A DNA stretch of 50,721 nt, from NCBI GenBank assembly GCA_946647665.1, contig CAMPCW010000002.1, positions 1 through 50,721 on the forward strand, read 5' to 3'. This DNA comes from an uncultured Bacillales bacterium (GTDB lineage: Bacteria > Bacillota_I > Bacilli_A > RFN20 > CAG-826). This document shows positions 39,675 through 50,721 of this stretch, piece by piece (position 1 is the stretch's first letter; each line of letters begins with the position of its first letter). The position numbers were made by a program, and so were the translations under genes. Under the pieces are notes generated by a model. That model searched no databases, had not been told where the DNA came from, and worked only from the letters and a program-made list of their open reading frames with translations.

Positions 39675-40340
39675 ATGGATATTCAAATTGTTAAAGTCAA
39701 AGAAGATATATTAATCGAAAATAATAAGAAAGCAGACTCTTTAAGAGCATTTTTAAAAGAAAAAGGCATTTATTTTATTAATGTCATGGCCTCTCCTGGA
39801 AGCGGCAAGACTACTTTACTAACTCGAGTCATTAACTCTTTAAAATCTAAATATCGTATTGGTGTACTTGAGGCTGATATAGACGGGGATGTTGATGCGG
39901 AAAGAATTAGTCAAAATACCGGTGTTAAAGTCATTCAAGTTCATACTTCAGGAGCGTGTCATTTAACTGCCCAAATGGTGGAAGATGCTTTAAAAGCCTT
40001 TGGGGTGGATGATTTAGATTTAATTATTTTAGAAAATGTTGGTAATTTAGTCTGCCCAGCAGAGTTTGATACAGGCAGTAATATAAACATGATGTTACTA
40101 TCAACTTCTGAAGGACATGATAAACCATTAAAATACCCGCTTATGTTCCAAGTCAGTAAAATCGCGGTTATTTCTAAAATGGATGTCGCTGAAGTTTTTG
40201 ATTTTGACATTAATAAGGCTAAGACAAACATTTTATATAGAAATCCTGAGGCAAAAATCTTTGCCCTTTCCTCTATAAAAAACGAAGGTGTTGATAGCCT
40301 AATTAACTACATCGATGGCCTAATTCAAAAAGGTAAATAA
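39675..40340 (+). CDS. hypB: HypB-type G3E metallochaperone GTPase, paralogue 2
   Basis: ASPGSGKTTL P-loop, ACHLTA, ENVGNLVCPAEFD and SKMD; clearly alignable over most of its length with 38930..39604. Confidence 0.8.
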   Translation: MDIQIVKVKEDILIENNKKADSLRAFLKEKGIYFINVMASPGSGKTTLLTRVINSLKSKYRIGVLEADIDGDVDAERISQNTGVKVIQVHTSGACHLTAQMVEDALKAFGVDDLDLIILENVGNLVCPAEFDTGSNINMMLLSTSEGHDKPLKYPLMFQVSKIAVISKMDVAEVFDFDINKAKTNILYRNPEAKIFALSSIKNEGVDSLINYIDGLIQKGK

Positions 40341-40341
40341 T

Positions 40342-41184
40342 ATGAAATATTATAACGAACAGTCTTTTAGCGGTGAACGCGCAGTATTTATGGAAAAAGA
40401 CGCTACTTTTTATAAGTGTTATTTTCATGATGGAGAGTCTCCATTAAAAGAAAGTAAAGATATTCAAATAATTGAATCAACTTTTCAGTGGAAATATCCA
40501 ATTTGGTATTCAACAAATGTTAAAGTTAGAAATTCAAAATTGTTATATACCGCTAGAAGTGGAATTTGGTATACAAAAAATATTGAAATCACTGACTCAG
40601 TTATTGAAGCGCCAAAAACATTTAGAAGAAGTGAAAATATCTCTTTAATAAATGTTAAATTACCACATGCTGATGAGACACTTTGGAAATGCAAGGGTGT
40701 TAAACTAATTAACGTTGAAGTTAAGGGTGATTATTTTGGTTTTAATTCTGAAGATTTAATAATTGAAAATCTTAATCTAGATGGAAATTATGGCTTCGAT
40801 GGAGCGAAAAACATCAAAATCCATAACTCTATTTTGAAAACTAAAGATGCTTTTTGGAATGTGGAAAATGTTGTAGTTACTGATTCCACAATAATTGGCG
40901 AATATTTAGCGTGGAATAGTAAAAACATTACATTTATTAACTGTAAAATTATTTCTCATCAAGGCTTATGCTATATGGATAATGTCAAAATGGTTAACTG
41001 TGAATTGATTGATTCTGATTTATGTTTTGAATTTTGTTCTCGTTTAGATATTAAAGTTAACAGTGTTATTGATTCGATTAAAAACCCTTATTCTGGAAGA
41101 ATTGAATGTAAAGGCGTAAAAGAATTAATTTTAGAAGAAGATAAAATAGATCCAGCTTTAACGGAGATTGTTATTAATGGCTAA
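40342..41184 (+). CDS. DUF3737-like beta-helix repeat protein
   Basis: Repetitive ..N..I.NS.I... pattern and N-terminus YNEQSFSGERAVF; family assignment is from memory of DUF3737 sequences. Confidence 0.5.
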   Translation: MKYYNEQSFSGERAVFMEKDATFYKCYFHDGESPLKESKDIQIIESTFQWKYPIWYSTNVKVRNSKLLYTARSGIWYTKNIEITDSVIEAPKTFRRSENISLINVKLPHADETLWKCKGVKLINVEVKGDYFGFNSEDLIIENLNLDGNYGFDGAKNIKIHNSILKTKDAFWNVENVVVTDSTIIGEYLAWNSKNITFINCKIISHQGLCYMDNVKMVNCELIDSDLCFEFCSRLDIKVNSVIDSIKNPYSGRIECKGVKELILEEDKIDPALTEIVING

Positions 41185-42337
41185 ATATAATTTCGATACT
41201 TCCATTAATAGAAAAGAAACTTATAGTATCCGCTGGGACGTAAAAGATGGAGAATTACCATTAAATATCGCTGACATGGATTTTTTGGTGATGCCAGAAA
41301 TTGAAAAATCAATTAAATCTAGGGCGGAACAGGCTTGTTATGGTTATACCTATGTTCCTGATTCGTATTATGAAGCTTATATCCGTTGGTGGAGAGATCG
41401 TCACAACACTAGATTAGAAAAAGACTGGTTTGTCTATTCTAAATCTGTAGTGGCATCTATAGATTCTATCTTTAAACATTTAGGTAAACCAAATGATGTA
41501 GTAGTGATGCTTACTCCTGTTTATAATGTGTTTTTTAACTGTATTGAAAACAATAACTTAGTTCTTAAAGAATGTGAATTCATTATAAATGAGGAGTTTA
41601 GTATTGATTGGATAAAATTAGAAACTCAATTGCGTGGAGCAAAATTCTTCTTATTATGTAATCCTCATAATCCGTTAGGAAGAAAATTTACTATCGATGA
41701 ATTAAATAAGATAATTAACCTCTGTAAGCAAAACAATGTTTATGTAATATCCGATGAAATTCATGGCGATATTGATCTAAATAAAGGAAGATATATCTCT
41801 ATTTTAAATAGTGGAGTTACTCGATACGATAAAGTTATTACATTGTTATCTCCTAGCAAGATGTTTAATGTCGCTGGATTACATTCTTCAGTTGCGGTTA
41901 TATCTAATAATAAGTTAAAGGAAATGGTGCAAAATGGGTTTTGGCAAGACGATATTGGTGAGCCAAATTATTTTGCTATCGATCCAATTATTACCGCTTT
42001 TAGCTATGGAGATGAATACGTAGATCAATTAAACTCATATTTAAATGAAAATAGAACATTTTTAATTGAATTTTTGATCAAAAACCTACCAAATTTAAAA
42101 ATTGTCAGTGGAACTTATACATATTTAGTGTGGATTGATATTTCTTGTTATAGTAAAGATTCAAGGCTATTTGCTAAAAGGCTACAAGAGGCTACTGGCT
42201 TAGTTGTCGCTCCTGGAATTAACTATGGAAAATCTGGAGAAGGATATATTAGATTAAATATTGCTACTCCAAGAGATAATTTAATAGATGCATGTAATAG
42301 ATTAATGAATTATATAAGCGAAAATGAGGAGGAATAA
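41177..42337 (+). CDS. MalY/PatB-type PLP-dependent C-S lyase (class I/II aminotransferase fold)
   Basis: FDTSINRKETYSIRWD N-terminus, NPHNPLGR, SDEIHGD and SPSKMFN (PLP Lys) blocks; ATG 41177 overlaps the upstream stop. Confidence 0.8.
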   Translation: MAKYNFDTSINRKETYSIRWDVKDGELPLNIADMDFLVMPEIEKSIKSRAEQACYGYTYVPDSYYEAYIRWWRDRHNTRLEKDWFVYSKSVVASIDSIFKHLGKPNDVVVMLTPVYNVFFNCIENNNLVLKECEFIINEEFSIDWIKLETQLRGAKFFLLCNPHNPLGRKFTIDELNKIINLCKQNNVYVISDEIHGDIDLNKGRYISILNSGVTRYDKVITLLSPSKMFNVAGLHSSVAVISNNKLKEMVQNGFWQDDIGEPNYFAIDPIITAFSYGDEYVDQLNSYLNENRTFLIEFLIKNLPNLKIVSGTYTYLVWIDISCYSKDSRLFAKRLQEATGLVVAPGINYGKSGEGYIRLNIATPRDNLIDACNRLMNYISENEEE

Positions 42338-42340
42338 TCT

Positions 42341-42898
42341 ATGAAAAAGAAAATGAATATTTGCCCAGCAATATTCCCGATGCCTGTAATTTTAATAGCA
42401 ACCTACAACGATGATGGTTCTATCGATGTAATGAATGCGGCTTGGGGATGCGCATTTGACACAAAACAAATTGAACTCAATATTTCTGATTCCCATCGTA
42501 CTACTGAGAATATTAGAAAAAGAAAAGCGTTTACTGTTTCTTTAGCAGATGTTAGCAATATGGTTCCAGCGGATTTTGTTGGTATTGTATCTAGTAAAAA
42601 TGATCCAAAGAAGTTTGAAAAAACTGGTTGGAAAGCTCATAAAAGCGAATTAGTGGACGCGCCAATTTTAGATGACTTACCTTATTCTTTAGAATGTACA
42701 CTTGAATGTTTTAAAGAGGACTATGGAATTATTGGTAATATTGTTCAACTCTTAGTGGATGATAAATTTTTAGATGAAAATGGTAAAGTCAATTTAGAAA
42801 AGATGCAAATCATTTCTTATGATCCTTTTAACCATGGCTATTATGTGGTGGGTAAAAAAGTTGGACAAGCATTTTCAGAAGGAAGAAAAATCAAATAA
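42341..42898 (+). CDS. Flavin reductase-like (flavoredoxin) family protein
   Basis: 185 aa; P.PVILIATY..DG..DVMNAAW pattern typical of the FMN-binding split barrel. Confidence 0.65.
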   Translation: MKKKMNICPAIFPMPVILIATYNDDGSIDVMNAAWGCAFDTKQIELNISDSHRTTENIRKRKAFTVSLADVSNMVPADFVGIVSSKNDPKKFEKTGWKAHKSELVDAPILDDLPYSLECTLECFKEDYGIIGNIVQLLVDDKFLDENGKVNLEKMQIISYDPFNHGYYVVGKKVGQAFSEGRKIK

Positions 42899-44067
42899 TG
42901 GAAGATAACGTTTCCAAATTATTATCTGAATATAAAAAGATATTTGATAGTGACGCTGAACACGTTTTTTCCTGTGGTGGCCGCTTTGAAATCTTGGGCA
43001 ATCATACAGATCATAACCACGGTCTTTGTTTAGCCAGTGCTTGTAATTTAGAAATTGTTGCTTCGGTTAGAAAAAACGATTCTAATAAAGTCTTGTTTCA
43101 ATCCCTAGGTTTTGAGCTAGATGAAGTAGATTTATGTGATTTAAACGCGAATAAAAAAGAATACGCAACTTCAAAAGGATTAATTAGAGGTGTCGCTGCT
43201 TATTTAAAAGAACACGGCTATAAAATAGGAGGATTTAACGCCTATAGCGAATCTTCTATTTTTAAAGGAGCAGGTGTATCTAGCTCTGCAGCTTTTGAAC
43301 TTTTAGTAGGTTATATATTTAACGTTTTATATAATAACGGTAAAATCTCAAAATTGGAGTTGTGTAAAGCTGGTAAATACGCAGAAAATGAATATTTTGG
43401 AAAGAAAAGTGGTCTTTTGGACCAAATTGGAGTTGGCTTTGGTGGAGTTGTAAAAATTGATTTTAAAAATATCAATGACCCATTTGTTGAACAAATCGAA
43501 TTCCCATTTAAAGATTTACACTTTGTTTTAGTAAATACTGGTGGAGATCATTCGTCTCTCAGTGATTTATATTCTTCTATCCCTAGTGATATGTATGAAG
43601 CCGCAAAAGCGTGTGGACATAACTTTTTAGTCGAAGGGTCTATGGAAGAAGTTGAAGCTCATAAAAGTGAGATGAGTGAATCATCTTACTTAAGAGCGAA
43701 ACATTATTATGGAGAAAACGATAGAGTAAGAAATGCCTTTAAGGCTTTACAAGATAATAACCAAGAAATGTTCTTGAAAATGATTAACGAATCTAGAGAG
43801 TCTTCCTCTAAATATTTAAAAAATATGATGGTGGAATCTAACTACAAAGGTTCACCATTAGAAGCTTGTGATTTATTAATGAAATATAGCGATAATCAAG
43901 GGGCTGTCAAAATTAATGGTGGTGGCTTTGCAGGAAGCGTTATTGCTTTAGTCCCTACTTCTAAATTAGAAAAAGTTTTAGAAAAAATGAAAGAACATTA
44001 CGGAGAAAATAATGTTCAAGAAATATTTGTTAGGGACAGTGGACCAAAAGTTATTTATAATAAGTAA
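42898..44067 (+). CDS. Galactokinase-family GHMP kinase
   Basis: [16 protein letters not shown] galactokinase signature-like block, GHMP motif [11 protein letters not shown], and [12 protein letters not shown] near the C-terminus. Confidence 0.75.
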
Positions 44068-44081
44068 AGGAGAAAAAATAT

Positions 44082-44621
44082 ATGGAATTAAAAGGTAGTC
44101 GTACTGAGAAAAATTTAGAAATGGCATTTGCAGGTGAAAGCCAAGCAAGAAATAAGTATACTTATTTTGCCTCAAAAGCTAAAAAAGAAGGATATGAACA
44201 AATCGCTGCTATTTTCTTAGAAACAGCAGATAACGAAAAAGAACACGCGGAATTATGGTTTAAATACCTTCATGGTGGTGCTGTTCCTACTACTGAAGAA
44301 AACTTAAAAGCTGCTGCTGAAGGTGAAAACTTTGAGTGGACTGATATGTATAAAGAAATGGCAAAAGTCGCTAGAGAAGAAGGGTTTACTGAAATTGCTT
44401 GTAAATTCGAATTAGTCGCTAAAATTGAAAAAGAACACGAAGAAAGATATCTTGCTTTACTTGAAAAAGTGAAATCCAATAAAGTCTTTGTTAGTGATGA
44501 TGTCGTAATTTGGAAATGCCGTAACTGCGGACATATCCATGTTGGAAAAGAAGCTCCTGAGCTCTGCCCAACATGTAAACATCCAAAAAGCTATTTTGAA
44601 AGACAAGCTAAAAATTATTAA
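44082..44621 (+). CDS. rbr: Rubrerythrin
   Basis: Diiron ExxH helices ([16 protein letters not shown]) and a C-terminal rubredoxin-like CRNCG...CPTC. Confidence 0.9.
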
Positions 44622-44637
44622 TTCTTTAATATAAAAG

Positions 44638-44663
44638 ATACGGCCATTAGGTCGTATTTTTTT
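44638..44663 (+). terminator. Rho-independent terminator after rbr
   Basis: ATACGGCC-ATTA-GGTCGTAT (one G-U pair) followed by T7. Confidence 0.75.
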
Positions 44664-44701
44664 ATTGCCTAAATAGATATTTATTTTATAATAATAACGC
44701 T

Positions 44702-45571
44702 ATGAGAGTATTAGATGCTTGGCAAGGTTGGGTTGATTTCTGGCAAAAGTTTGCAGATTTTTTCTGGAAACCTGACGAAACTGGAATTAACTATCTTTCT
44801 CGTATTGGTGTAGCTATTGCTATTATCGTTTTCACTTGGCTTGTTCTTAAATTATTCAACCCATTACTTAAAAAACTATTTAAGGTCAAAAAAGGACCTG
44901 ATATTGATGTATCTGCAAAATTAATTATTCTTGGATTACTTAAATTTTTAATTTGGATCACTGTTGGTTTTATCGTTTGTAGTGTTTTAAAAATCAATTT
45001 ATCAGGAGTGGGCGGAATCATCGCTTCTGTTGGTGTCGCTCTTGGTTTAGCTTTACAAGATTTAGTCGGATCATTCTTCTCTGGCTTATTGATTATAAAT
45101 CAAAAAACTATTAGGACTGGTGACCACATTTTAGTTAAAAATGCCTTTGGGGAATGCGAAGGTGTTGTTAAAAGAGTTCATTTCTTCACCACAATTTTAA
45201 CTAGCTTCCAAGGTCAAAAAATTATCATCCCTAATAAAAATATGTCTAGTGCGGTTATTACTAACTACACTGTGAATGGAGAAAGAAGAATCGATTATGA
45301 TGTGGGAGTGAGCTATGATAGCGATCTTGAAGTTGTTAAAGAAGCTTTAGCCTCAGTAATTAAAGATGAACCGCTTGTGATTAATCCTGAAAAAACACAA
45401 GTATACGCTGAATCATTTGGACCATACTCTGTTAATATGAGACTAAGATGTTGGACTAAAGTTGATGATTATTGGACTTTATATAATCAACTAACCGAAA
45501 GAATCTATCTGGCGTTTAAGCAAAAAGGTGTTTATATTCCAAGTTCCACTGATAGAAATATTAAGAAATAG
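44702..45571 (+). CDS. MscS-family mechanosensitive channel
   Basis: TM helices followed by a beta-domain (GDHILVKNAFGECEGVVKRVHFFTTILTSFQGQKIIIPN). Promoter TTGCCT-16-TATAAT ends 9 nt before the ATG, and there is no SD. Confidence 0.85.
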   Translation: MRVLDAWQGWVDFWQKFADFFWKPDETGINYLSRIGVAIAIIVFTWLVLKLFNPLLKKLFKVKKGPDIDVSAKLIILGLLKFLIWITVGFIVCSVLKINLSGVGGIIASVGVALGLALQDLVGSFFSGLLIINQKTIRTGDHILVKNAFGECEGVVKRVHFFTTILTSFQGQKIIIPNKNMSSAVITNYTVNGERRIDYDVGVSYDSDLEVVKEALASVIKDEPLVINPEKTQVYAESFGPYSVNMRLRCWTKVDDYWTLYNQLTERIYLAFKQKGVYIPSSTDRNIKK

Positions 45572-45597
45572 CTGGCTATTGCCAGTTTTCTTTTTTT
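45572..45597 (+). terminator. Rho-independent terminator after the mscS-like gene
   Basis: CTGGC-TATT-GCCAG followed by TTTTCTTTTTTT. Confidence 0.75.
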
Positions 45598-45611
45598 AAA
45601 AAATTTTTAAC

Positions 45612-45659
45612 TTTTTTTCGCAAGAAATTAAAAAAATCCACTCTTTATATAATGTAGGG
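45612..45659 (+). promoter_or_regulatory. Conserved promoter module, copy B
   Basis: 46/48 identical to 18771-18818; -10 TATAAT at 45648-45653. Confidence 0.6.
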
Positions 45660-45805
45660 ACTTTTATAAGTTTCTATAATCCGAGACTCATCCAAGAGGC
45701 GCACTTTGGATGACTCTAGTGATTTTCTTTCTTCTTCAGTTTCTTTTTATCTAGATCATCTATGCGTTAGATGAGTCGAGGTAGGAGGGAGTTTTAATAT
45801 GAGAA

Positions 45806-45877
45806 ATGATCGTTGCTCTATTTGAGATCATCATAATCCTCTTGATTATAAAAAAAGACCCAAGCGACAAGCGTTAG
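45806..45877 (+). CDS. 23-aa hydrophobic peptide, type-I-toxin-like (copy 1, possibly frameshifted)
   Basis: MIVALFEIIIILLIIKKDPSDKR. The SD AGGAGGG at 45783-45789 is better placed for ATG 45799, which opens only MRNDRCSI*. Confidence 0.4.
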   Translation: MIVALFEIIIILLIIKKDPSDKR

Positions 45878-45890
45878 GGTCCAACCACAT
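45850..45890 (-). ncRNA. Predicted short antisense RNA overlapping the 3' end of peptide gene 1
   Basis: Minus-strand promoter TTGACT-17-TATCTT (plus coordinates 45923..45895), then hairpin GACCC-N15-GGGTC (45857-45881) followed by T7 on the minus strand. Confidence 0.35.
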
Positions 45891-45982
45891 CTAAAAGATA
45901 ACTGAATAACGCTTAAAAGTCAAGTTCTCTAATAGAGTCTTGATTAAATCCTTTGATAGGGCTATTGCCTATTAATAGGAGT

Positions 45983-46011
45983 TTGTCTCGTGGTCTCTTT
46001 GCACTTTTAAT
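45983..46011 (+). promoter_or_regulatory. Putative promoter of peptide gene 2, preceded by the 12-bp palindrome CCTATTAATAGG (45968-45979)
   Basis: TTGTCT-17-TTTAAT. Confidence 0.35.
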
Positions 46012-46053
46012 CATCTATCGTGATGTATCAAAAGGTAGAAAGGTGTGATTATT

Positions 46054-46143
46054 ATGTCTTCTAATAAGATGACAGTAATTATCTTAATTCTAGAAATAGT
46101 GATTTTGATACTTACAGTAATAATAAAAGCCCTAAGCAAGTAA
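46054..46143 (+). CDS. 29-aa hydrophobic peptide, type-I-toxin-like (copy 2)
   Basis: MSSNKMTVIILILEIVILILTVIIKALSK; SD AAAGGTG lies 8 nt upstream. Confidence 0.45.
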   Translation: MSSNKMTVIILILEIVILILTVIIKALSK

Positions 46144-46160
46144 CTAGGGCAACCAACTAA
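46121..46160 (-). ncRNA. Predicted short antisense RNA overlapping the 3' end of peptide gene 2
   Basis: Minus-strand promoter TTGACA-17-TACATT (plus coordinates 46193..46165), then hairpin GCCCTAG-N8-CTAGGGC with one mismatch (46129-46150) followed by TTTTATTATT on the minus strand. Confidence 0.35.
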
Positions 46161-46270
46161 TTATAATGTAGACCACGCGGTTACTAATGTCAACATTAAT
46201 AGTAGCTTTAGATTTATCTAGTTCGCCATTATGGGTAAAATAGGCTACTAATTGACGTAGGAAATCTTTC

Positions 46271-46299
46271 TTTACAAGACTATGAGCGATATGTATAAT
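46271..46299 (+). promoter_or_regulatory. Sigma-A-type promoter of rpsF-ssb-rpsR
   Basis: TTTACA (46271-46276), a 17-nt spacer, then TGTATAAT (extended -10; TATAAT at 46294-46299). Confidence 0.65.
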
Positions 46300-46371
46300 A
46301 CATATGCTAAAGTTAGCAAAACTCTGCTATTAATTAAATTCAATAGCCGTTAGACCAAGGAGGAAAAGAAA

Positions 46372-46662
46372 ATGCGCAAATACGAAATTATGTACATTTT
46401 AAGAGCCGACTTAGAAGAAGCACAACGTAAGGAAGTCATGGAAAAGCTTGCCAAAATTATCACTGACAATGGTGGTAAAGTTGAAGAAACAAGCGAAGCT
46501 ATGGGCTTACGTGAACTTGCTTATCCAATTAAGGAACAATCTAAGGGTTACTATGTTGTACTTAAGGTTTCTATGGATAACAAAGCGATTAATGAATTCA
46601 ATCGTTTAGTCCGTATCAACCCAAGTGTCCTACGTCATCTTATTGTTGTAGAACACAAATAA
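46372..46662 (+). CDS. rpsF: 30S ribosomal protein S6
   Basis: MRKYEIMYILR.. N-terminus; SD AAGGAGG. Confidence 0.97.
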   Translation: MRKYEIMYILRADLEEAQRKEVMEKLAKIITDNGGKVEETSEAMGLRELAYPIKEQSKGYYVVLKVSMDNKAINEFNRLVRINPSVLRHLIVVEHK

Positions 46663-46676
46663 GGAGGATCATGTAA

Positions 46677-47111
46677 ATGATTAATCGTGTCGTTTTAGTG
46701 GGTCGTTTAACTAGAGATCCAGAACTCAGAAAAACCACATCCGGAAACTCTGTCTGTACATTCACAGTCGCTCTAGACAACAGAATGAAAAATCCAGATG
46801 GTTCTAAAGGAACAAGCTTTATTCCTTGTACAGCCTTTACAACCACCGCGGAAACAGTTTCAAAATTTGCCCGTAAGGGATTATTAGTTGGAGTCGAAGG
46901 TCGTCTTAATCAAAGAAGCTTCATTCGTCAAGATGGACAAAAATCAAGTGTTATCGAAGTATTATGTGACTCAGTTCAATTCTTAGAAAAGAGAAATGAA
47001 GAAGTCGCTAATGAAGAAATGGATATTCCACCATTTGATGACGTTGTTCCTGCTGAAGAATCTAAGAATTTAGACAGTATTGAAATTACTGATGACGATC
47101 TCCCATTCTAA
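46677..47111 (+). CDS. ssb: Single-stranded DNA-binding protein
   Basis: [20 protein letters not shown]-fold N-terminus and acidic tail DDDLPF. Confidence 0.97.
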
Positions 47112-47128
47112 GAAAGGAAGATAAAATA

Positions 47129-47356
47129 ATGGCATTTAAGAAAGTTAGACCACACAAGAAGGTCTGTTACTTCAAGAAAAATAACATTACCCACATCGAT
47201 TATAAAGATGTTGAAACATTAAAGATGTTTATTGCTTCTAATGGAAAAATTTCTCCACGTAGAACAACTGGTACATGTGCAAAACATCAAAGAGAATTAG
47301 CTGTCGCAATTAAAAATGCGAGATTTATGGCTCTTCTCCCATATGTTGCTGACTAA
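47129..47356 (+). CDS. rpsR: 30S ribosomal protein S18
   Basis: [41 protein letters not shown]. Confidence 0.97.
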
Positions 47357-47472
47357 TTAAAGTCTGTAGCAGGACAGTCGCGATTTGCCTCAGTTGGCTA
47401 AAAATGACTTTCCTCGCAAAGCATTAGTCGAAGTATATGAAGAAGTCCTAAGTCTAGGGCTAAATCAATGTA

Positions 47473-47503
47473 AATTAAGTCGTCCGTAATGGATGGCTTT
47501 TTT
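47473..47503 (+). terminator. Terminator with conserved AATTAAGTCGTC left arm, copy 1
   Basis: AATTAAGTCGTCC-GTAA-TGGATGGCTT + T-run; the stem needs G-U pairs, so it forms only in the + strand RNA. Confidence 0.6.
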
Positions 47504-47553
47504 GTTGCATTAATAAATACTAAGTATATAATTTTCGTAGGAGATTAATTTAT

Positions 47554-47817
47554 ATGGTGATGAAAAGACATTTGCTTTTAAACAAGATAGCAACAATATC
47601 TTTAATTGTTTTGGCTGCTGCTGGATTTATTGCTGGCTTTGTGTTGGCTTTTTCTTTAAAATCCGTTTATCGTGAAGAGTATCAATACGTAGCTTACTTA
47701 TTATATATCCCAGCGGTTAGTGGAGGTTCGCTTGTTCTTTCTGTCCCAGGGATATTTATTCTTTTGTGGATAAGAAAAGATTATTACGAACTAAACGCTA
47801 AGGTTTCAAAACAATAA
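47554..47817 (+). CDS. Small two-TM membrane protein, unknown function
   Basis: SD TAGGAGA lies upstream; 87 aa; two hydrophobic helices. Confidence 0.5.
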   Translation: MVMKRHLLLNKIATISLIVLAAAGFIAGFVLAFSLKSVYREEYQYVAYLLYIPAVSGGSLVLSVPGIFILLWIRKDYYELNAKVSKQ

Positions 47818-47823
47818 AGCGCA

Positions 47824-47852
47824 AATTAAGTCGTCCATAGTGGCGGCTTTTT
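47824..47852 (+). terminator. Terminator with conserved AATTAAGTCGTC left arm, copy 2
   Basis: AATTAAGTCGTCC-ATAG-TGGCGGCTT + TTTT. Confidence 0.6.
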
Positions 47853-48147
47853 ATATAATTGAATTATATATTGGTTGTAAAATAAACAACTTTAGATGTA
47901 ATAAAATTGACAAAGAAAAGTCAAAAGCCTTCGTTAATCTGGACACAGAAAGCGAGATGATTGCATTGAGAGACTTTCTTAAAGAAGCTTTGGGACTTCT
48001 GCGGATTGCCTTAGCGTGCCTCCTATTAGCTTTGATAGCGTTACAGTTAAAATTAAAAGAGCCATTGACGACTAGTAGCACCTAAGTGTCTACGAGGCTC
48101 CACTCTTATATTTATATTATAGCATGCCTATTAAAAAATGACTACAT

Positions 48148-48345
48148 ATGTCTAAGGAAACCATTGGACCTAAAATTAAACAATTCAGAAAGAAAAGAAA
48201 ACTGAGTCAAGATGATTTAGCGGAATCTTTAGTGGCACATCCGAAAACTAAATTAACAATAAAACAAGGCTCAGCCCATTATTTCCATACCGAAGAGGAA
48301 AAAGAATTTATCAAGGCTTGGATTCTTAATTCTTTGCATCAATAA
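48148..48345 (+). CDS. XRE-family HTH fragment (probably truncated or remodelled regulator)
   Basis: IGPKIKQFRKKRKLSQDDLAESL matches helices 1-2 of Cro/C1-type HTH domains, but the recognition-helix consensus is missing after LAESL. There is no SD. The partial promoter motif TCCACTCTTATAT lies at 48099-48111. Confidence 0.35.
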   Translation: MSKETIGPKIKQFRKKRKLSQDDLAESLVAHPKTKLTIKQGSAHYFHTEEEKEFIKAWILNSLHQ

Positions 48346-48419
48346 GATAATCTTTGGTATCTCCTTTTAAAAAACATTAATAAGTGTTAATTTATAAATA
48401 AGAAGGGATATGTTGATTT

Positions 48420-49091
48420 ATGGCTACATATAACGCAGAAATAACGCAAAAATTTTTAGATGAGTATAAGACTTTTGAGTATATCGAAGAAAATGATCCT
48501 CATCGATTTGAGATGATAAAAAAACAGCATTATGTTGAATTCAATGCCTTAAGACATATCCGCAACTGCTTGACACATACTCCAAAAGTCAATGGCGATT
48601 TTCCTTTTCATGTCGCTGATTATGTTTTGGAAACACTAGAAGAAATAATAAATAAATTAGTGGTAAAAGCCTACGATGTAGGAATTAAGAAAGATAAAAT
48701 TAAAACATTATCTCCTGACACTGATGTATTACATGCAATGCGCTATATGGATCAGCTACATATTACTAATGTCCCAATCTTTGATGAGAAAGGGTGTGTT
48801 AGATATGTTGTTTCTATGCGAACAATATTCTCTATTCTTGCAAATGCAGAATATGATGAAAATAAATCATATACTATTGAAGATTTAAAAGATAAATTTG
48901 ATATCAATAACAGCAAAGATCTATATTACCTTTTCTTAGCAAAAGACACCTTTGCCTTTGATGCTAAACAATATTTTATCGGCTATAACAATGAACACAA
49001 AAGGTGCGCTTTAATATTTATTACTGAACATGGTTTAAGAAATGAACCTGTATTAGGAATTGTATCTCCTGGAGATGTGTTCAACATTTAA
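48420..49091 (+). CDS. HEPN-like (Rx4H) N-terminal domain fused to a CBS pair
   Basis: ALRHIRNCLTH matches the lR..RN...H form of the HEPN Rx4-6H motif. Two CBS-like repeats follow (IKTLSPDTDVLHAMRYMDQLHITNVPIFDEKGCVRYVVSMRTIF and YLFLAKDTFAFDAKQYF....ALIFITEHGLRNEPVLGIVSPGDVF). Confidence 0.55.
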   Translation: MATYNAEITQKFLDEYKTFEYIEENDPHRFEMIKKQHYVEFNALRHIRNCLTHTPKVNGDFPFHVADYVLETLEEIINKLVVKAYDVGIKKDKIKTLSPDTDVLHAMRYMDQLHITNVPIFDEKGCVRYVVSMRTIFSILANAEYDENKSYTIEDLKDKFDINNSKDLYYLFLAKDTFAFDAKQYFIGYNNEHKRCALIFITEHGLRNEPVLGIVSPGDVFNI

Positions 49092-49118
49092 TTCAGTTGT
49101 CCTTACTGACGGCTTATT

Positions 49119-49157
49119 TGTGGCACATCTGTGACAAACTATCTGATAAGATATATT
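49119..49157 (+). promoter_or_regulatory. Conserved upstream block of mini-protein gene 1
   Basis: TGTGGCACATCTGTGACA-N7-TGATAAGATATA parallels 50240-50279 (TGTGACACATTTGTGACA-N7-TGATAACATATA). Confidence 0.5.
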
Positions 49158-49176
49158 CAATCTTAGGGGGCAAATT

Positions 49177-49461
49177 ATGAAAAAAGAATTATTAAAAGGT
49201 TTAACTAAAGAACAAATTGCAAAAGTTAAGGCCTGTAAAAGTCATGAAGAATTAATGAAACTCGCTAAAAAAGAAGGCGTTGAACTTACTGAAGAGCAAT
49301 TAGCTGTTGTTAGTGGTGGTGGCGCTTGCAGTGTTATTTCAGATATAGGAGACTATATCAATCCAAATGACTGTCCAAGATGTGGTAGCAATAACTTAAA
49401 AGACAAAGGCACCTATTATATCTGCCAAAGCTGTGGCTACAAAATTGAAAACTACGATTAA
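49177..49461 (+). CDS. Mini-protein: Nif11-type double-glycine leader-like N-terminus + C-terminal zinc ribbon
   Basis: MKKELLKGLTKEQIAKVKACKSHEELMKLAKKEGVELTEEQLAVVSGG, then GACSVISDIGDYINPNDCPRCGSNNLKDKGTYYICQSCGYKIENYD; SD AGGGGG. Confidence 0.6.
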   Translation: MKKELLKGLTKEQIAKVKACKSHEELMKLAKKEGVELTEEQLAVVSGGGACSVISDIGDYINPNDCPRCGSNNLKDKGTYYICQSCGYKIENYD

Positions 49462-49473
49462 ATAAACGAGTAT

Positions 49474-49497
49474 AACCGAGTCTAGCTCGGTTTTTTT
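49474..49497 (+). terminator. Rho-independent terminator
   Basis: AACCGAG-TCTAG-CTCGGTT followed by T-run. Confidence 0.8.
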
Positions 49498-49524
49498 ATC
49501 TGCCCAACTCACGGAATTAAAGAC

Positions 49525-49533
49525 TGCTATAAT
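49525..49533 (+). promoter_or_regulatory. Extended -10 promoter (TGCTATAAT) immediately upstream of the NTase start
   Basis: TATAAT at 49528-49533 ends 4 nt before ATG 49538 and 7 nt before ATG 49541. There is no SD, which suggests a leaderless mRNA. Confidence 0.45.
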
Positions 49534-49537
49534 ACTA

Positions 49538-50239
49538 ATGATGCATAAAAATATTAGTAACAATCTAGAAATAGCCCTTGATAAGTTAAATAATTTAGAT
49601 TTTGATTTCCTCATTATTGGTGGGCTTATTTGTAATGCAGTATTAGCTAATCACGCAAGAAGAACATCTGATATCGATCTGATTTGTAATACTGATTTTC
49701 ATAAGTTAGAGGAACTATTAAAAAAAGAATTTGATGTCGTTCGTTTCCTTTATTTTCCTTTAACTAATGAGGCCACAGAAGAATCTTTTTCTTGTTTTGT
49801 AAGAATTAATAACGAGATTATACATATTGAAGGAAGAAGATTTGATATTTTTAATAAGTTTAAAAGAAGTGTTTATCAAATCGGACAATGTACTTTTAAT
49901 GGGGTCAGTGTTGAACTTCAAATTGCCGAGAAAATAATAGCGTTGTTTTCTATTCGAGTTCCATTATATAAACATCTTGTAGATTTGTATTCTTTCTCAA
50001 AATTAAATGATAAATCATTTAACAAAAATGATATCAAAAAGTATTTAAAGATGTTGCTTTCGTATAAAAATAACGTAAAAAAGAAGTTATATTTACCTCT
50101 TATTGATCTCCAACCCCATATTGAAGTAAATAAAGAGTTTGAAGGATCATTGTTACTTCCTTTACAAGCACAATATAACCACAATAAAGAATACATAATT
50201 GAAGAGATTAATAAATGGCTACCTCAATTTATTGAATAA
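49538..50239 (+). CDS. AbiEii/AbiGii-type (DUF1814-like) nucleotidyltransferase
   Basis: FLIIGGLICNAVLANHARRTSDIDLI matches the GG....R.S.DiD NTase block; LQIAEKIIALFSIRVPLYKHLVDLYSF matches the EK..A...R...rDlyDl block. Confidence 0.6.
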   Translation: MMHKNISNNLEIALDKLNNLDFDFLIIGGLICNAVLANHARRTSDIDLICNTDFHKLEELLKKEFDVVRFLYFPLTNEATEESFSCFVRINNEIIHIEGRRFDIFNKFKRSVYQIGQCTFNGVSVELQIAEKIIALFSIRVPLYKHLVDLYSFSKLNDKSFNKNDIKKYLKMLLSYKNNVKKKLYLPLIDLQPHIEVNKEFEGSLLLPLQAQYNHNKEYIIEEINKWLPQFIE

Positions 50240-50279
50240 TGTGACACATTTGTGACAAGTATTTTGATAACATATAGAT
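50240..50279 (+). promoter_or_regulatory. Conserved upstream block of mini-protein gene 2
   Basis: See 49119-49157; it starts directly after the NTase stop codon. Confidence 0.5.
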
Positions 50280-50299
50280 AACAAAGGAGAACTTCGAAC

Positions 50300-50608
50300 A
50301 TGAAAAAAGAATTATTAAAAGGTTTAACAGAAGAACAAATTAAAAAAGTTAGTGCATGCAAAAATACGGACGAATTGCTCGCTTTAGCCAAAGAAGAAGG
50401 ATTTTCTTTAACTGATGAACAATTAGAAGCAGTTAATGGTGGTGGTTGTTTATCCACTAACGCACCTGACGTTTCAAAAACATGTAAAAAATGTGGTAGA
50501 TTAGTAGAAGGTCGTTATATTGGTCGAAAATCATATTATGGCCTTATCTATGAATTTGCGTGTGAATGTGGGTATACTTGGAAAGGCTCCAAAAACGAAG
50601 ATTTATAA
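50300..50608 (+). CDS. Mini-protein paralogue: Nif11-type GG leader-like N-terminus + CxxC...CxC zinc ribbon
   Basis: MKKELLKGLTEEQIKKVSACKNTDELLALAKEEGFSLTDEQLEAVNGG, then GCLSTNAPDVSKTCKKCGRLVEGRYIGRKSYYGLIYEFACECGYTWKGSKNEDL. The first 29 nt of the CDS are identical to 49177..; SD AAAGGAGA. Confidence 0.6.
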   Translation: MKKELLKGLTEEQIKKVSACKNTDELLALAKEEGFSLTDEQLEAVNGGGCLSTNAPDVSKTCKKCGRLVEGRYIGRKSYYGLIYEFACECGYTWKGSKNEDL

Positions 50609-50642
50609 TTTTAAAACATAATTAAAATTGGATATATGTAAC

Positions 50643-50671
50643 AATTAAGTCGTCTACAAGGGCGACTTTTT
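50643..50671 (+). terminator. Terminator with conserved AATTAAGTCGTC left arm, copy 3
   Basis: AATTAAGTCGTC-TACAAGG-GCGACTT + TTTT. Confidence 0.6.
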
Positions 50672-50721
50672 ATTATCGAAACGAAGTGAGATAAAAACCG
50701 GGTGCTATGCACGTGAGAATA

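Follow-up and report, generated by a model that had tools for sequence, protein, structure and literature searches.

The DNA considered here (the window, i.e., a complete 50,721-bp scaffold from a sheep-rumen metagenome, belonging to an uncultured Bacillales bacterium) carries near its end two small genes, A and B, on either side of a gene for a nucleotidyltransferase (NTase) of the AbiEii/MenT fold. The products of A and B share one plan, namely a 48-residue acidic leader ending in a double glycine (GG), a Cys one or two residues further on and two Cys knuckles. The best reading of these proteins and of the family they belong to is that of Nif11-like, GG-leader substrates of peptidase-containing ATP-binding cassette (ABC) transporters (PCATs), with two unusual features: the folded zinc-ribbon cores that follow the leader and the recruitment of an AbiEii-fold NTase to the cluster. 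The features of the region, all of them on the forward strand, are listed below (HMM, hidden Markov model; ORF, open reading frame).

49119..49136, +, element upstream of gene A, TGTGGCACATCTGTGACA, a tandem TGTGRCA direct repeat with an 11-bp period (pattern scan)
49144-49152, +, extended -10-like sequence TGATAAGAT upstream of gene A, after the TGTGRCA repeat
49177-49461, +, gene A, an ORF of 94 aa
49177..49320, +, leader of gene A, residues 1-48, ending in VVSGG (Nif11 23.3 bits against 23.8; family leader HMM 91.8 bits)
49321..49461, +, core of gene A and stop codon, GACSVISDIGDYINPND-CPRCG-x11-I-CQSCGY... (Zn_Ribbon_TF 25.3 bits, E = 1e-5)
49474..49492, +, terminator-like hairpin 3' of gene A (terminator scan)
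49538..50239, +, AbiEii/MenT-fold NTase of 233 aa (Pfam AbiEii, PF08843, 26.0 bits against 22.5)
50240..50257, +, element upstream of gene B, TGTGACACATTTGTGACA (pattern scan)
50265-50273, +, extended -10-like sequence TGATAACAT upstream of gene B, after the TGTGRCA repeat
50300-50608, +, gene B, an ORF of 102 aa
50300..50443, +, leader of gene B, residues 1-48, ending in AVNGG (Nif11 23.4 bits, TIGR03798 25.2 bits, family leader HMM 102 bits)
50444..50608, +, core of gene B and stop codon, GCLSTNAPDVSKT-CKKCG-...GRYIGRKSYYGLIYEF-A-CECGYTW... (predicted NTase-linked zinc ribbon, conserved subtype)
50647..50668, +, terminator-like hairpin 3' of gene B (terminator scan)

Leader and core of genes A and B and of their family

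An earlier note on this DNA had described A and B as paralogous mini-proteins, and both ORFs are indeed present and related (BLASTP E = 3e-21, 55% identity over 71 residues), the similarity extending over the leader and no further than the first Cys knuckle, that is, over about the 70 first residues. Some details of that description have to be corrected: the cores do not begin with Cys but with G-A-C in A and G-C in B, and the dyad spacers given as 16 and 21 residues are 13 residues in A (C66-x2-C69 and C83-x2-C86) and 22 in B (C62-x2-C65 and C88-x-C90), while of the lengths given for the region after the first GG (46 and 53 aa) that of A is right and that of B is 54 aa.

The proposed Nif11-like double-glycine leader, on the other hand, stands for both proteins. 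Their leaders end in LTEEQLAVVSGG (A) and LTDEQLEAVNGG (B), with the GG and hydrophobic residues at positions -4, -7 and -12, and across 205 leaders of the family these are the positions that are kept (G-1 in 100%, G-2 in 99%, V/I-4 in 99%, L-7 in 96% and L-12 in 100%). Substrate mutagenesis of the C39 protease LahT150, from a Lachnospiraceae bacterium, has indicated that it is precisely the GG together with -4, -7 and -12 that matter (PMC6363468), so the family leader, which retains the positions essential for LahT150, fits a substrate of a C39 leader peptidase. This conservation favours a genuine export leader. The leaders are acidic (mean charge -3.2 over the family), and in the AlphaFold2 model of B the leader has a predicted local distance difference test (pLDDT) of 43-55, as expected of a flexible segment. 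The match to the Nif11 leader models that the earlier note looked for is partial, in that A and B fall just under the curated cut-offs while 26 of 57 family members match Pfam Nif11 and 32 of 57 match TIGR03798 at E <= 1e-3. Residue 20 of both leaders (49234-49236 and 50357-50359) is a Cys, within ACK, conserved in 202 of 204 members. A Cys within the leader is atypical of Nif11 leaders; together with the five Cys of the core it gives an even Cys total.

As regards the cores, a scaffold of the form CxxC-x(13-30)-Cx(1-2)C is found in 205 of 217 members, so that the family shows the two knuckles (a rubredoxin-like knuckle pair) by which a zinc ribbon is recognized, and a dozen different zinc-ribbon models of Pfam and NCBIfam are matched by cores across the family. 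The core of A scores just short of the Zn_Ribbon_TF cut-off of 29 bits, and residues 60-100 of the B model are predicted at a pLDDT of 83-91, with strands at 68-77 and 81-87. A Foldseek search of the whole B model against the PDB, in which the disordered leader dominates, returned nothing significant. On these models the cores are predicted to fold as four-Cys zinc ribbons, which would bind zinc, and the statement of the earlier note that a folded zinc ribbon is atypical as the core of a ribosomally made, post-translationally modified peptide (RiPP) stands. Besides the four knuckle Cys, there is a further one no more than five residues from the GG in every one of the 204 unique members. Some precursors combine the family leader with a short core (...HRKIES, ...KRKIDS, ...NPF), and both short and zinc-ribbon cores open with a common (G/A)-C-S/T-S/T stub. 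This shared stub hints at a common Cys-dependent step, possibly catalysed by the radical S-adenosylmethionine (rSAM) enzyme discussed below. The contigs of two short-core homologues (P0259 and P0261) are too short to inform on their context.

The family of proteins with this leader and a zinc-ribbon core is large and undescribed in rumen bacteria, and its architecture recurs far too often to be a coincidence. A search with B of a 90%-identity database gave 464 proteins of the same architecture, of 86-117 aa; an exhaustive profile search at E <= 1e-10 gave 471 clusters, 50% identity being the clustering level; and relatives are encoded at 307 places among the GTDB species representatives, the best 80 of which all belong to rumen or gut metagenome-assembled genomes (MAGs) labelled Bacilli, Bacillales, Erysipelotrichaceae or Lachnospiraceae. 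No model of the curated NCBIfam and Pfam collections covers the family, the only database name found for it is a spurious "transposase-like protein", and the literature searched contains no description in which a leader of the Nif11 or GG type is tied to an NTase or a zinc ribbon. The family, neighbour and motif counts given here refer to 77 fetched genome loci (designated L and a number), in which a leader HMM found 217 members, 205 of them with CxxC...CxxC. Their genes are packed at up to 13 members per 20 kb, as many as 11 of them in unbroken succession, with arrays of this kind also in L006 and L012, and mean identity is 71% between leaders and 31% between cores.

Gene A stands apart as a cassette of its own, furnished with a separate promoter element and terminator. 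Orthologous cores are encoded in L042, L089 and L092-L094, whereas gene A, promoter element and terminator included, is missing from L015 (UBA2450; L015 3947-4028 against window 49177-49461), which is otherwise collinear with the window and 93-96% identical to it. This absence from so close a relative indicates that single genes of the family act as cassettes of gain and loss.

Promoter element, NTase and export genes across the family's loci

The pattern TGTGRCACWTNTGTGRCA, which describes the direct repeat, has exactly two matches in the 50.7-kb window, upstream of A and of B, against 0.04 expected, and is followed about 8 nt later by TGNTAAYAT. The element lies 41 nt from the start of A and 43 nt from that of B, and the copy of B begins one base past the NTase stop codon. 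No canonical sigma-70 promoter was found upstream of either gene, and a sigma-54 reading of the TGGCAC within the element was ruled out by inspection, the GG-N10-GC spacing being absent. When the 77 loci were scanned with up to one mismatch allowed, 101 of the 123 matches lay just upstream of family members, another 5 preceded NTase genes of clade 3 (see below), which makes NTase and zinc ribbon an operon there, and 15 preceded other genes, mostly for signal-peptide proteins or lipoproteins, plus a gene for a weakly HipA-like protein of about 395 aa. The element is also found on genes for large proteins, secreted or of lipoprotein type and lacking Pfam domains, namely those of clusters c8 (about 464 aa; L028, L029, L045 and L070) and c95 (about 667 aa; L061 and L082), by which the regulon would include Sec-dependent secreted proteins too. 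By analogy, this layout resembles the activator-dependent promoters of bacteriocin regulons of the Blp, Pln and Nis types.

The NTase has the invariant residues G28, G29, D45, D47, K145, H146, L147, D149 and Y151, i.e., the GG, DxD and KHLxD motifs, and its AlphaFold2 model (pLDDT 90.9) finds as best Foldseek matches TglT (6j7n; E = 3e-7, TM-score 0.53) and JHP933, followed by two nucleotidyltransferases that act on antibiotics, ANT(2'')-Ia and LnuA. A profile search against PDB sequences gave an N-terminal match to 5uvd only. With PADLOC, the NTase obtains weak AbiEii matches only (<=24 bits), B none, and A two weak and unrelated ones (HEC-08, 18.1 bits; Cas12a, 12.6 bits).

The NTase is the true partner of B, and not of A, and the pairing is nearly obligatory. 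When the neighbours in the 77 loci were clustered, an NTase of about 240 aa was the commonest of them (20 loci), and in 20 of 20 loci it has a family member 34-113 bp after it in the same orientation, with other flanking genes varying. The reverse test started from loci fetched from metagenomes via the NTase itself: of the 26 that extend far enough beyond the NTase, 25 show a family member as the next gene, one of these (L110) being a partial match. In the exception, L107, an insertion-sequence-like element with a minus-strand transposase (906-1760) is inserted exactly after the TGTGRCA element and replaces the zinc-ribbon gene. The genes upstream of the NTase vary by locus (CBS protein, Fic, MgtC-like, rSAM and others), so that the downstream GG-leader zinc-ribbon gene is its only constant neighbour, and no terminator separates the NTase gene from B. 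There are three NTase clades, 33-39% identical to one another, each with its conserved core subtype (...GRYIGRKSYYGLIYEF..., ...G-E-VYRDSS-KNLG-F... and ...G-x-YVETTPGDGKYHF...); that of B is conserved across clade 1. All three subtypes have the same fixed geometry and invariably carry Ser/Thr at the tip of the hairpin, a column that is Ser/Thr in all 21 aligned NTase-linked cores and Ser78 in B. The GG, -4, -7 and -12 determinants are likewise invariant in the NTase-linked members of all three clades. The functional link with the NTase suggested by the earlier note thus holds for B, including pairs within an rSAM/exporter cluster in relatives, and fails for A, the independent cassette.

At several loci (L035, L037, L038, L060, L074, L087 and L091), genes for GGDEF, HD-GYP (HD_5) or hybrid histidine kinase proteins lie directly downstream of the pair of NTase and zinc ribbon; such a neighbourhood could be due to chance or shared synteny, or could point to signalling linked to cyclic di-GMP.

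Export and maturation genes stand beside family-leader genes in relatives of the window. L017, which is 91-92% identical to the window at the nucleotide level and syntenic with it over 40121-50673, and L089 are contigs of one MAG, CAMUVS01, a sister genome of the window. In L089, an array of five zinc-ribbon members and a 61-aa precursor with the family leader and a 13-residue core are followed by genes for a 465-aa radical-SAM/SPASM protein, a 130-aa HlyD-like protein and a 722-aa PCAT (Peptidase_C39 108 bits, TIGR03796 825 bits, catalytic-Cys motif ECGAASL), and then by a second ABC subunit that is cut short where the contig ends. That subunit is homologous to the one of L042, a locus of the same layout in which it scores 661 bits to TIGR03797, and where a C-terminal remnant of the NTase also lies beside the rSAM/exporter cluster. 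In L061, a seven-gene array is followed by the HipA-like gene, rSAM, HlyD-like gene and PCAT. Two further loci, the strongest evidence for the partnership, bring the NTase into the same cluster: in L106, rSAM, NTase (<=45 nt apart), zinc ribbon, HlyD-like, PCAT and second ABC subunit genes follow one another on one strand, and in L117 the order is NTase, zinc ribbon, HlyD-like, PCAT. The association of a C39 ABC transporter with a maturase (rSAM/SPASM, PCAT and second ABC subunit) is therefore a feature of L089, L042, L061, L106 and L117. The rSAM/SPASM protein of the cluster scores below every curated maturase cut-off, including the sactipeptide and ranthipeptide models, and no RiPP recognition element (RRE) domain was detected in the N-terminal 95 aa.

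The HipA-like protein of about 395 aa (weak HipA_C kinase match, 22.8 bits) is encoded at L089 4988-6175, L042 8440-9639, L061 16637-17809 and L012 12917-14104; its gene carries the regulon element and heads the operon of short precursor, rSAM and PCAT, with a Phd/YefM-like gene (78 aa) next after it in L089, and in L012 it is placed between zinc-ribbon arrays. After the exporter genes of L042 (16204-17859) come genes for a STAS anti-sigma-factor antagonist and a membrane SpoIIE/PP2C phosphatase, a pair that could regulate the regulon by partner switching.

Elsewhere in the window, a 223-aa CBS-domain protein (36.7 bits; 48420-49091, +) is encoded upstream of gene A. Its N-terminal region has an Rx4H-like motif (RNCLTH), and the earlier note had labelled it HEPN; as a component of the system it was ruled out, since, apart from the three closest relatives (cluster c20), the NTase occurs without it, which makes it local synteny. 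An Rfam and tRNA scan of 44000-50721 found nothing, and this includes a stretch of about 800 bp upstream of rpsF (45572-46371) with no long ORF, where the scans, at the Rfam gathering threshold, are also empty. No relatives were found in IMG/VR, and so there is no sign there of carriage by phages.

Weighing the explanations

The explanation preferred here, with a probability of roughly 0.65, treats A and B as cargo proteins that carry a GG leader and belong to a co-regulated group of secreted products; an NHLP-type PCAT whose gene lies elsewhere in the genome would cleave and export them. Recognition of the leader (acidic, Nif11-like and 48 residues long) would fall to the C39 domain of this transporter, encoded outside the window, with the cut after G48 made during export, and the product would be a hydrophilic mini-protein of 46-54 residues consisting of a (G/A)-C-S/T-rich stub and a four-Cys zinc ribbon. 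Each gene would have its own activator-type TGTGRCA-repeat promoter, and these promoters would join the family in one regulon with several signal-peptide proteins and the maturase/exporter operon. The many divergent cores suggest a role in competition (bacteriocin-like) or in signalling. For the NTase, the likeliest roles are the tailoring of B or an enzyme-based self-immunity to it, with the hairpin-tip Ser/Thr (Ser78 in B) as the candidate acceptor. Of the two alternatives of the earlier note, exported or processed peptides with partner genes outside the window are thus favoured, given the C39 determinants that are kept and the rSAM and PCAT genes beside family-leader genes in relatives.

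Several points weigh against this explanation. The whole 50.7-kb window has no PCAT gene and no rSAM gene, and its link to a PCAT runs through the sister MAG, where a binning error is possible, and through more distant relatives; most array members, besides, are not beside a PCAT. The leader scores stay under the curated cut-offs both of Pfam Nif11 (PF07862; 23.3 bits for A and 23.4 for B against 23.8) and of TIGR03798 (16.6 and 25.2 bits against 32.3). In the fetched Lachnospiraceae loci neither NTase nor C39 peptidase-ABC exporter was found, and in the Lachnospiraceae family genes inspected the promoter element is not evident, the upstream sequences being different. Neither an immunity gene nor a histidine kinase or response regulator dedicated to the system was identified, and the cores, hydrophilic and with a mean charge of +1.1 only mildly cationic, differ from typical pore-forming class II bacteriocins. 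Finally, cleavage, export, zinc binding, NTase chemistry and biological activity are all predictions. A bolder version of the same explanation sees here a new RiPP-like class, with a diversified and folded zinc-ribbon core exported via the PCAT, an AbiEii/MenT-fold NTase, taken over from toxins as an enzyme of peptide tailoring or self-immunity, that nucleotidylylates the hairpin-tip Ser/Thr (Ser78 of B) and an rSAM enzyme that acts on the post-cleavage Cys, and in this full form it is tentative at best and rather unlikely.

What else could the NTase and B be? The other alternative of the earlier note, in which the protein is an intracellular antitoxin or adaptor of the NTase/HEPN, can be put as a toxin-antitoxin or abortive-infection module: the NTase would be a toxin that nucleotidylates tRNA or RNA like MenT/TglT, B its intracellular antitoxin or adaptor, the Nif11-like segment just a helical domain, and A and the arrays spare or decoy antitoxins. 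The AbiEii Pfam match and the catalytic motifs of the NTase, its best structural neighbour being the toxin TglT/MenT3, the varied genomic contexts of the NTase-B module (like those of mobile toxin-antitoxin modules) and the possible co-transcription of both genes, with no terminator in between, all agree with it. Nonetheless, none of the window neighbours of the NTase is AbiEi-like in the Pfam, NCBIfam and PADLOC scans, no AbiEi, MenA or TakA antitoxin is named among the recurrent neighbours at other loci (from the clustering, scanned only in part), and the PADLOC matches to AbiEii are weak. The majority of family members have no NTase nearby, B in clades 1 and 2 is under the same regulon promoter as the exported family, and in L106 and L117 the pair is embedded among rSAM and HlyD-like/PCAT genes. 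Together with the local character of the CBS/HEPN-like gene and the cleavage determinants that remain invariant across NTase clades of 33-39% identity, this speaks against the intracellular role, which we regard as highly improbable.

The Cys residues themselves admit another explanation, according to which these are thioether RiPPs, the Cys being donors for sactionine or ranthionine bridges that the rSAM enzyme makes and that staple the hairpin, with the CxxC pairs not acting as metal ligands. An rSAM/SPASM gene is present in the cluster, directly upstream of the NTase-zinc-ribbon pair in L106, and the extra Cys close to the GG in 204 of 204 members and in the short cores, with an S/T-rich stub after it, would suit such a chemistry. 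However, the knuckles CPxCG(S) and CxxCGxxW are the classic signature of zinc ribbons and bring matches to the dozen ribbon models, the AlphaFold2 model is a beta-hairpin ribbon at high pLDDT (83-91), the spacer varies from 13 to 30 residues with the four Cys fixed, and the rSAM protein exceeds the cut-off of no curated sactipeptide or ranthipeptide maturase model. For the cores as a whole, thioether bridging is consequently doubtful, although it can be combined with the export explanation in a possible mixed outcome, where the N-terminal Cys is cross-linked and the ribbon binds zinc. As for the exported peptides being pheromones, i.e., secreted signals sensed by membrane sensors and controlling the same regulon or cyclic di-GMP signalling, the promoter architecture is like that of pheromone-induced regulons, several loci have GGDEF, HD-GYP or hybrid histidine kinase genes immediately after the pair, and short cores such as ...HRKIES look pheromone-sized. 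Yet specific signalling is difficult to reconcile with divergent paralogues by the dozen in one genome, the size of the GGDEF and histidine kinase families means that chance or shared synteny may explain the neighbourhood, and no cognate sensor was identified, all of which makes a pure pheromone function quite improbable.

Known systems and significance

Taking the family as exported cargo, the closest known systems are the Nif11-type RiPP precursors (TIGR03798; the prochlorosins ProcA, and also LahA1-9 of Lachnospiraceae C6A11), which likewise have a long, acidic and helical leader ending in ...L-x4-L-x2-V-x-GG, numerous paralogues in each genome, alike in their leader and different in their cores, and precursor genes that lie scattered away from those for processing. 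Their leader is removed and the product exported by a C39-ABC transporter (PMC6363468), as is predicted here. The differences are the cores (predicted zinc ribbons of 46-54 residues instead of Ser/Thr/Cys-rich lanthipeptides), the enzymes (rSAM/SPASM and AbiEii-fold NTase, with no LanM found) and HMM scores just below the cut-offs. The export genes resemble the NHLP/NHLM system (TIGR03794/03796/03797) in having a C39-peptidase ABC protein and a second ABC subunit with a small HlyD-like protein before them (L089, L042 and L106), although they score slightly under the equivalog cut-offs, the HlyD-like protein is of about 130 aa instead of the 421 aa of the model, and the hosts here are Gram-positive rumen Bacilli. 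Radical-SAM thioether RiPPs exported via PCATs (CteA/CteB with PCAT1 from C. thermocellum; sactipeptides and ranthipeptides) also have a GG-type leader, adjoining rSAM/SPASM and PCAT genes and a Cys near the start of the core, but in the present family the maturase falls in no curated family, no RRE was detected and most cores are folded zinc ribbons, as predicted, and not short.

At the level of regulation, the Blp, plantaricin and Com regulons likewise combine many GG-leader peptide genes, each with its copy of a shared direct-repeat promoter, with one PCAT and a gene content that varies between strains, as gene A does. They differ in that no LytTR/OmpR regulator or histidine kinase is assigned here, in the repeat itself (TGTGRCA with an 11-bp period), in the hydrophilic zinc ribbons predicted here in place of amphipathic, membrane-active peptides and in that no small membrane immunity genes were seen. 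The AbiEii/MenT/TglT (DUF1814) toxins match the NTase in fold and catalytic motifs (GG...DxD, K..A....KHLxD), whereas the latter is smaller (233 aa), has no AbiEi/TakA-type antitoxin identified, has a GG-leader zinc-ribbon gene downstream and sits within an rSAM/PCAT cluster in relatives.

If the export explanation is true, GG-leader/PCAT export would reach beyond short peptides to a large library of folded, metal-stabilized mini-proteins in strictly anaerobic gut bacteria, where zinc knuckles could take over the structural role of disulfides in a reducing environment. AbiEii/MenT-type NTases are known so far as toxins and phage-defence effectors, and they would gain a second life in a peptide biosynthetic and export cluster, which would make peptide nucleotidylylation or enzyme-based immunity directly testable. 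The leader, the promoter element and the compact scaffold would, moreover, provide a handle for mining systems of antagonism or signalling in the rumen, and the family itself would be a naturally diversified mini-protein scaffold with a known and removable leader.

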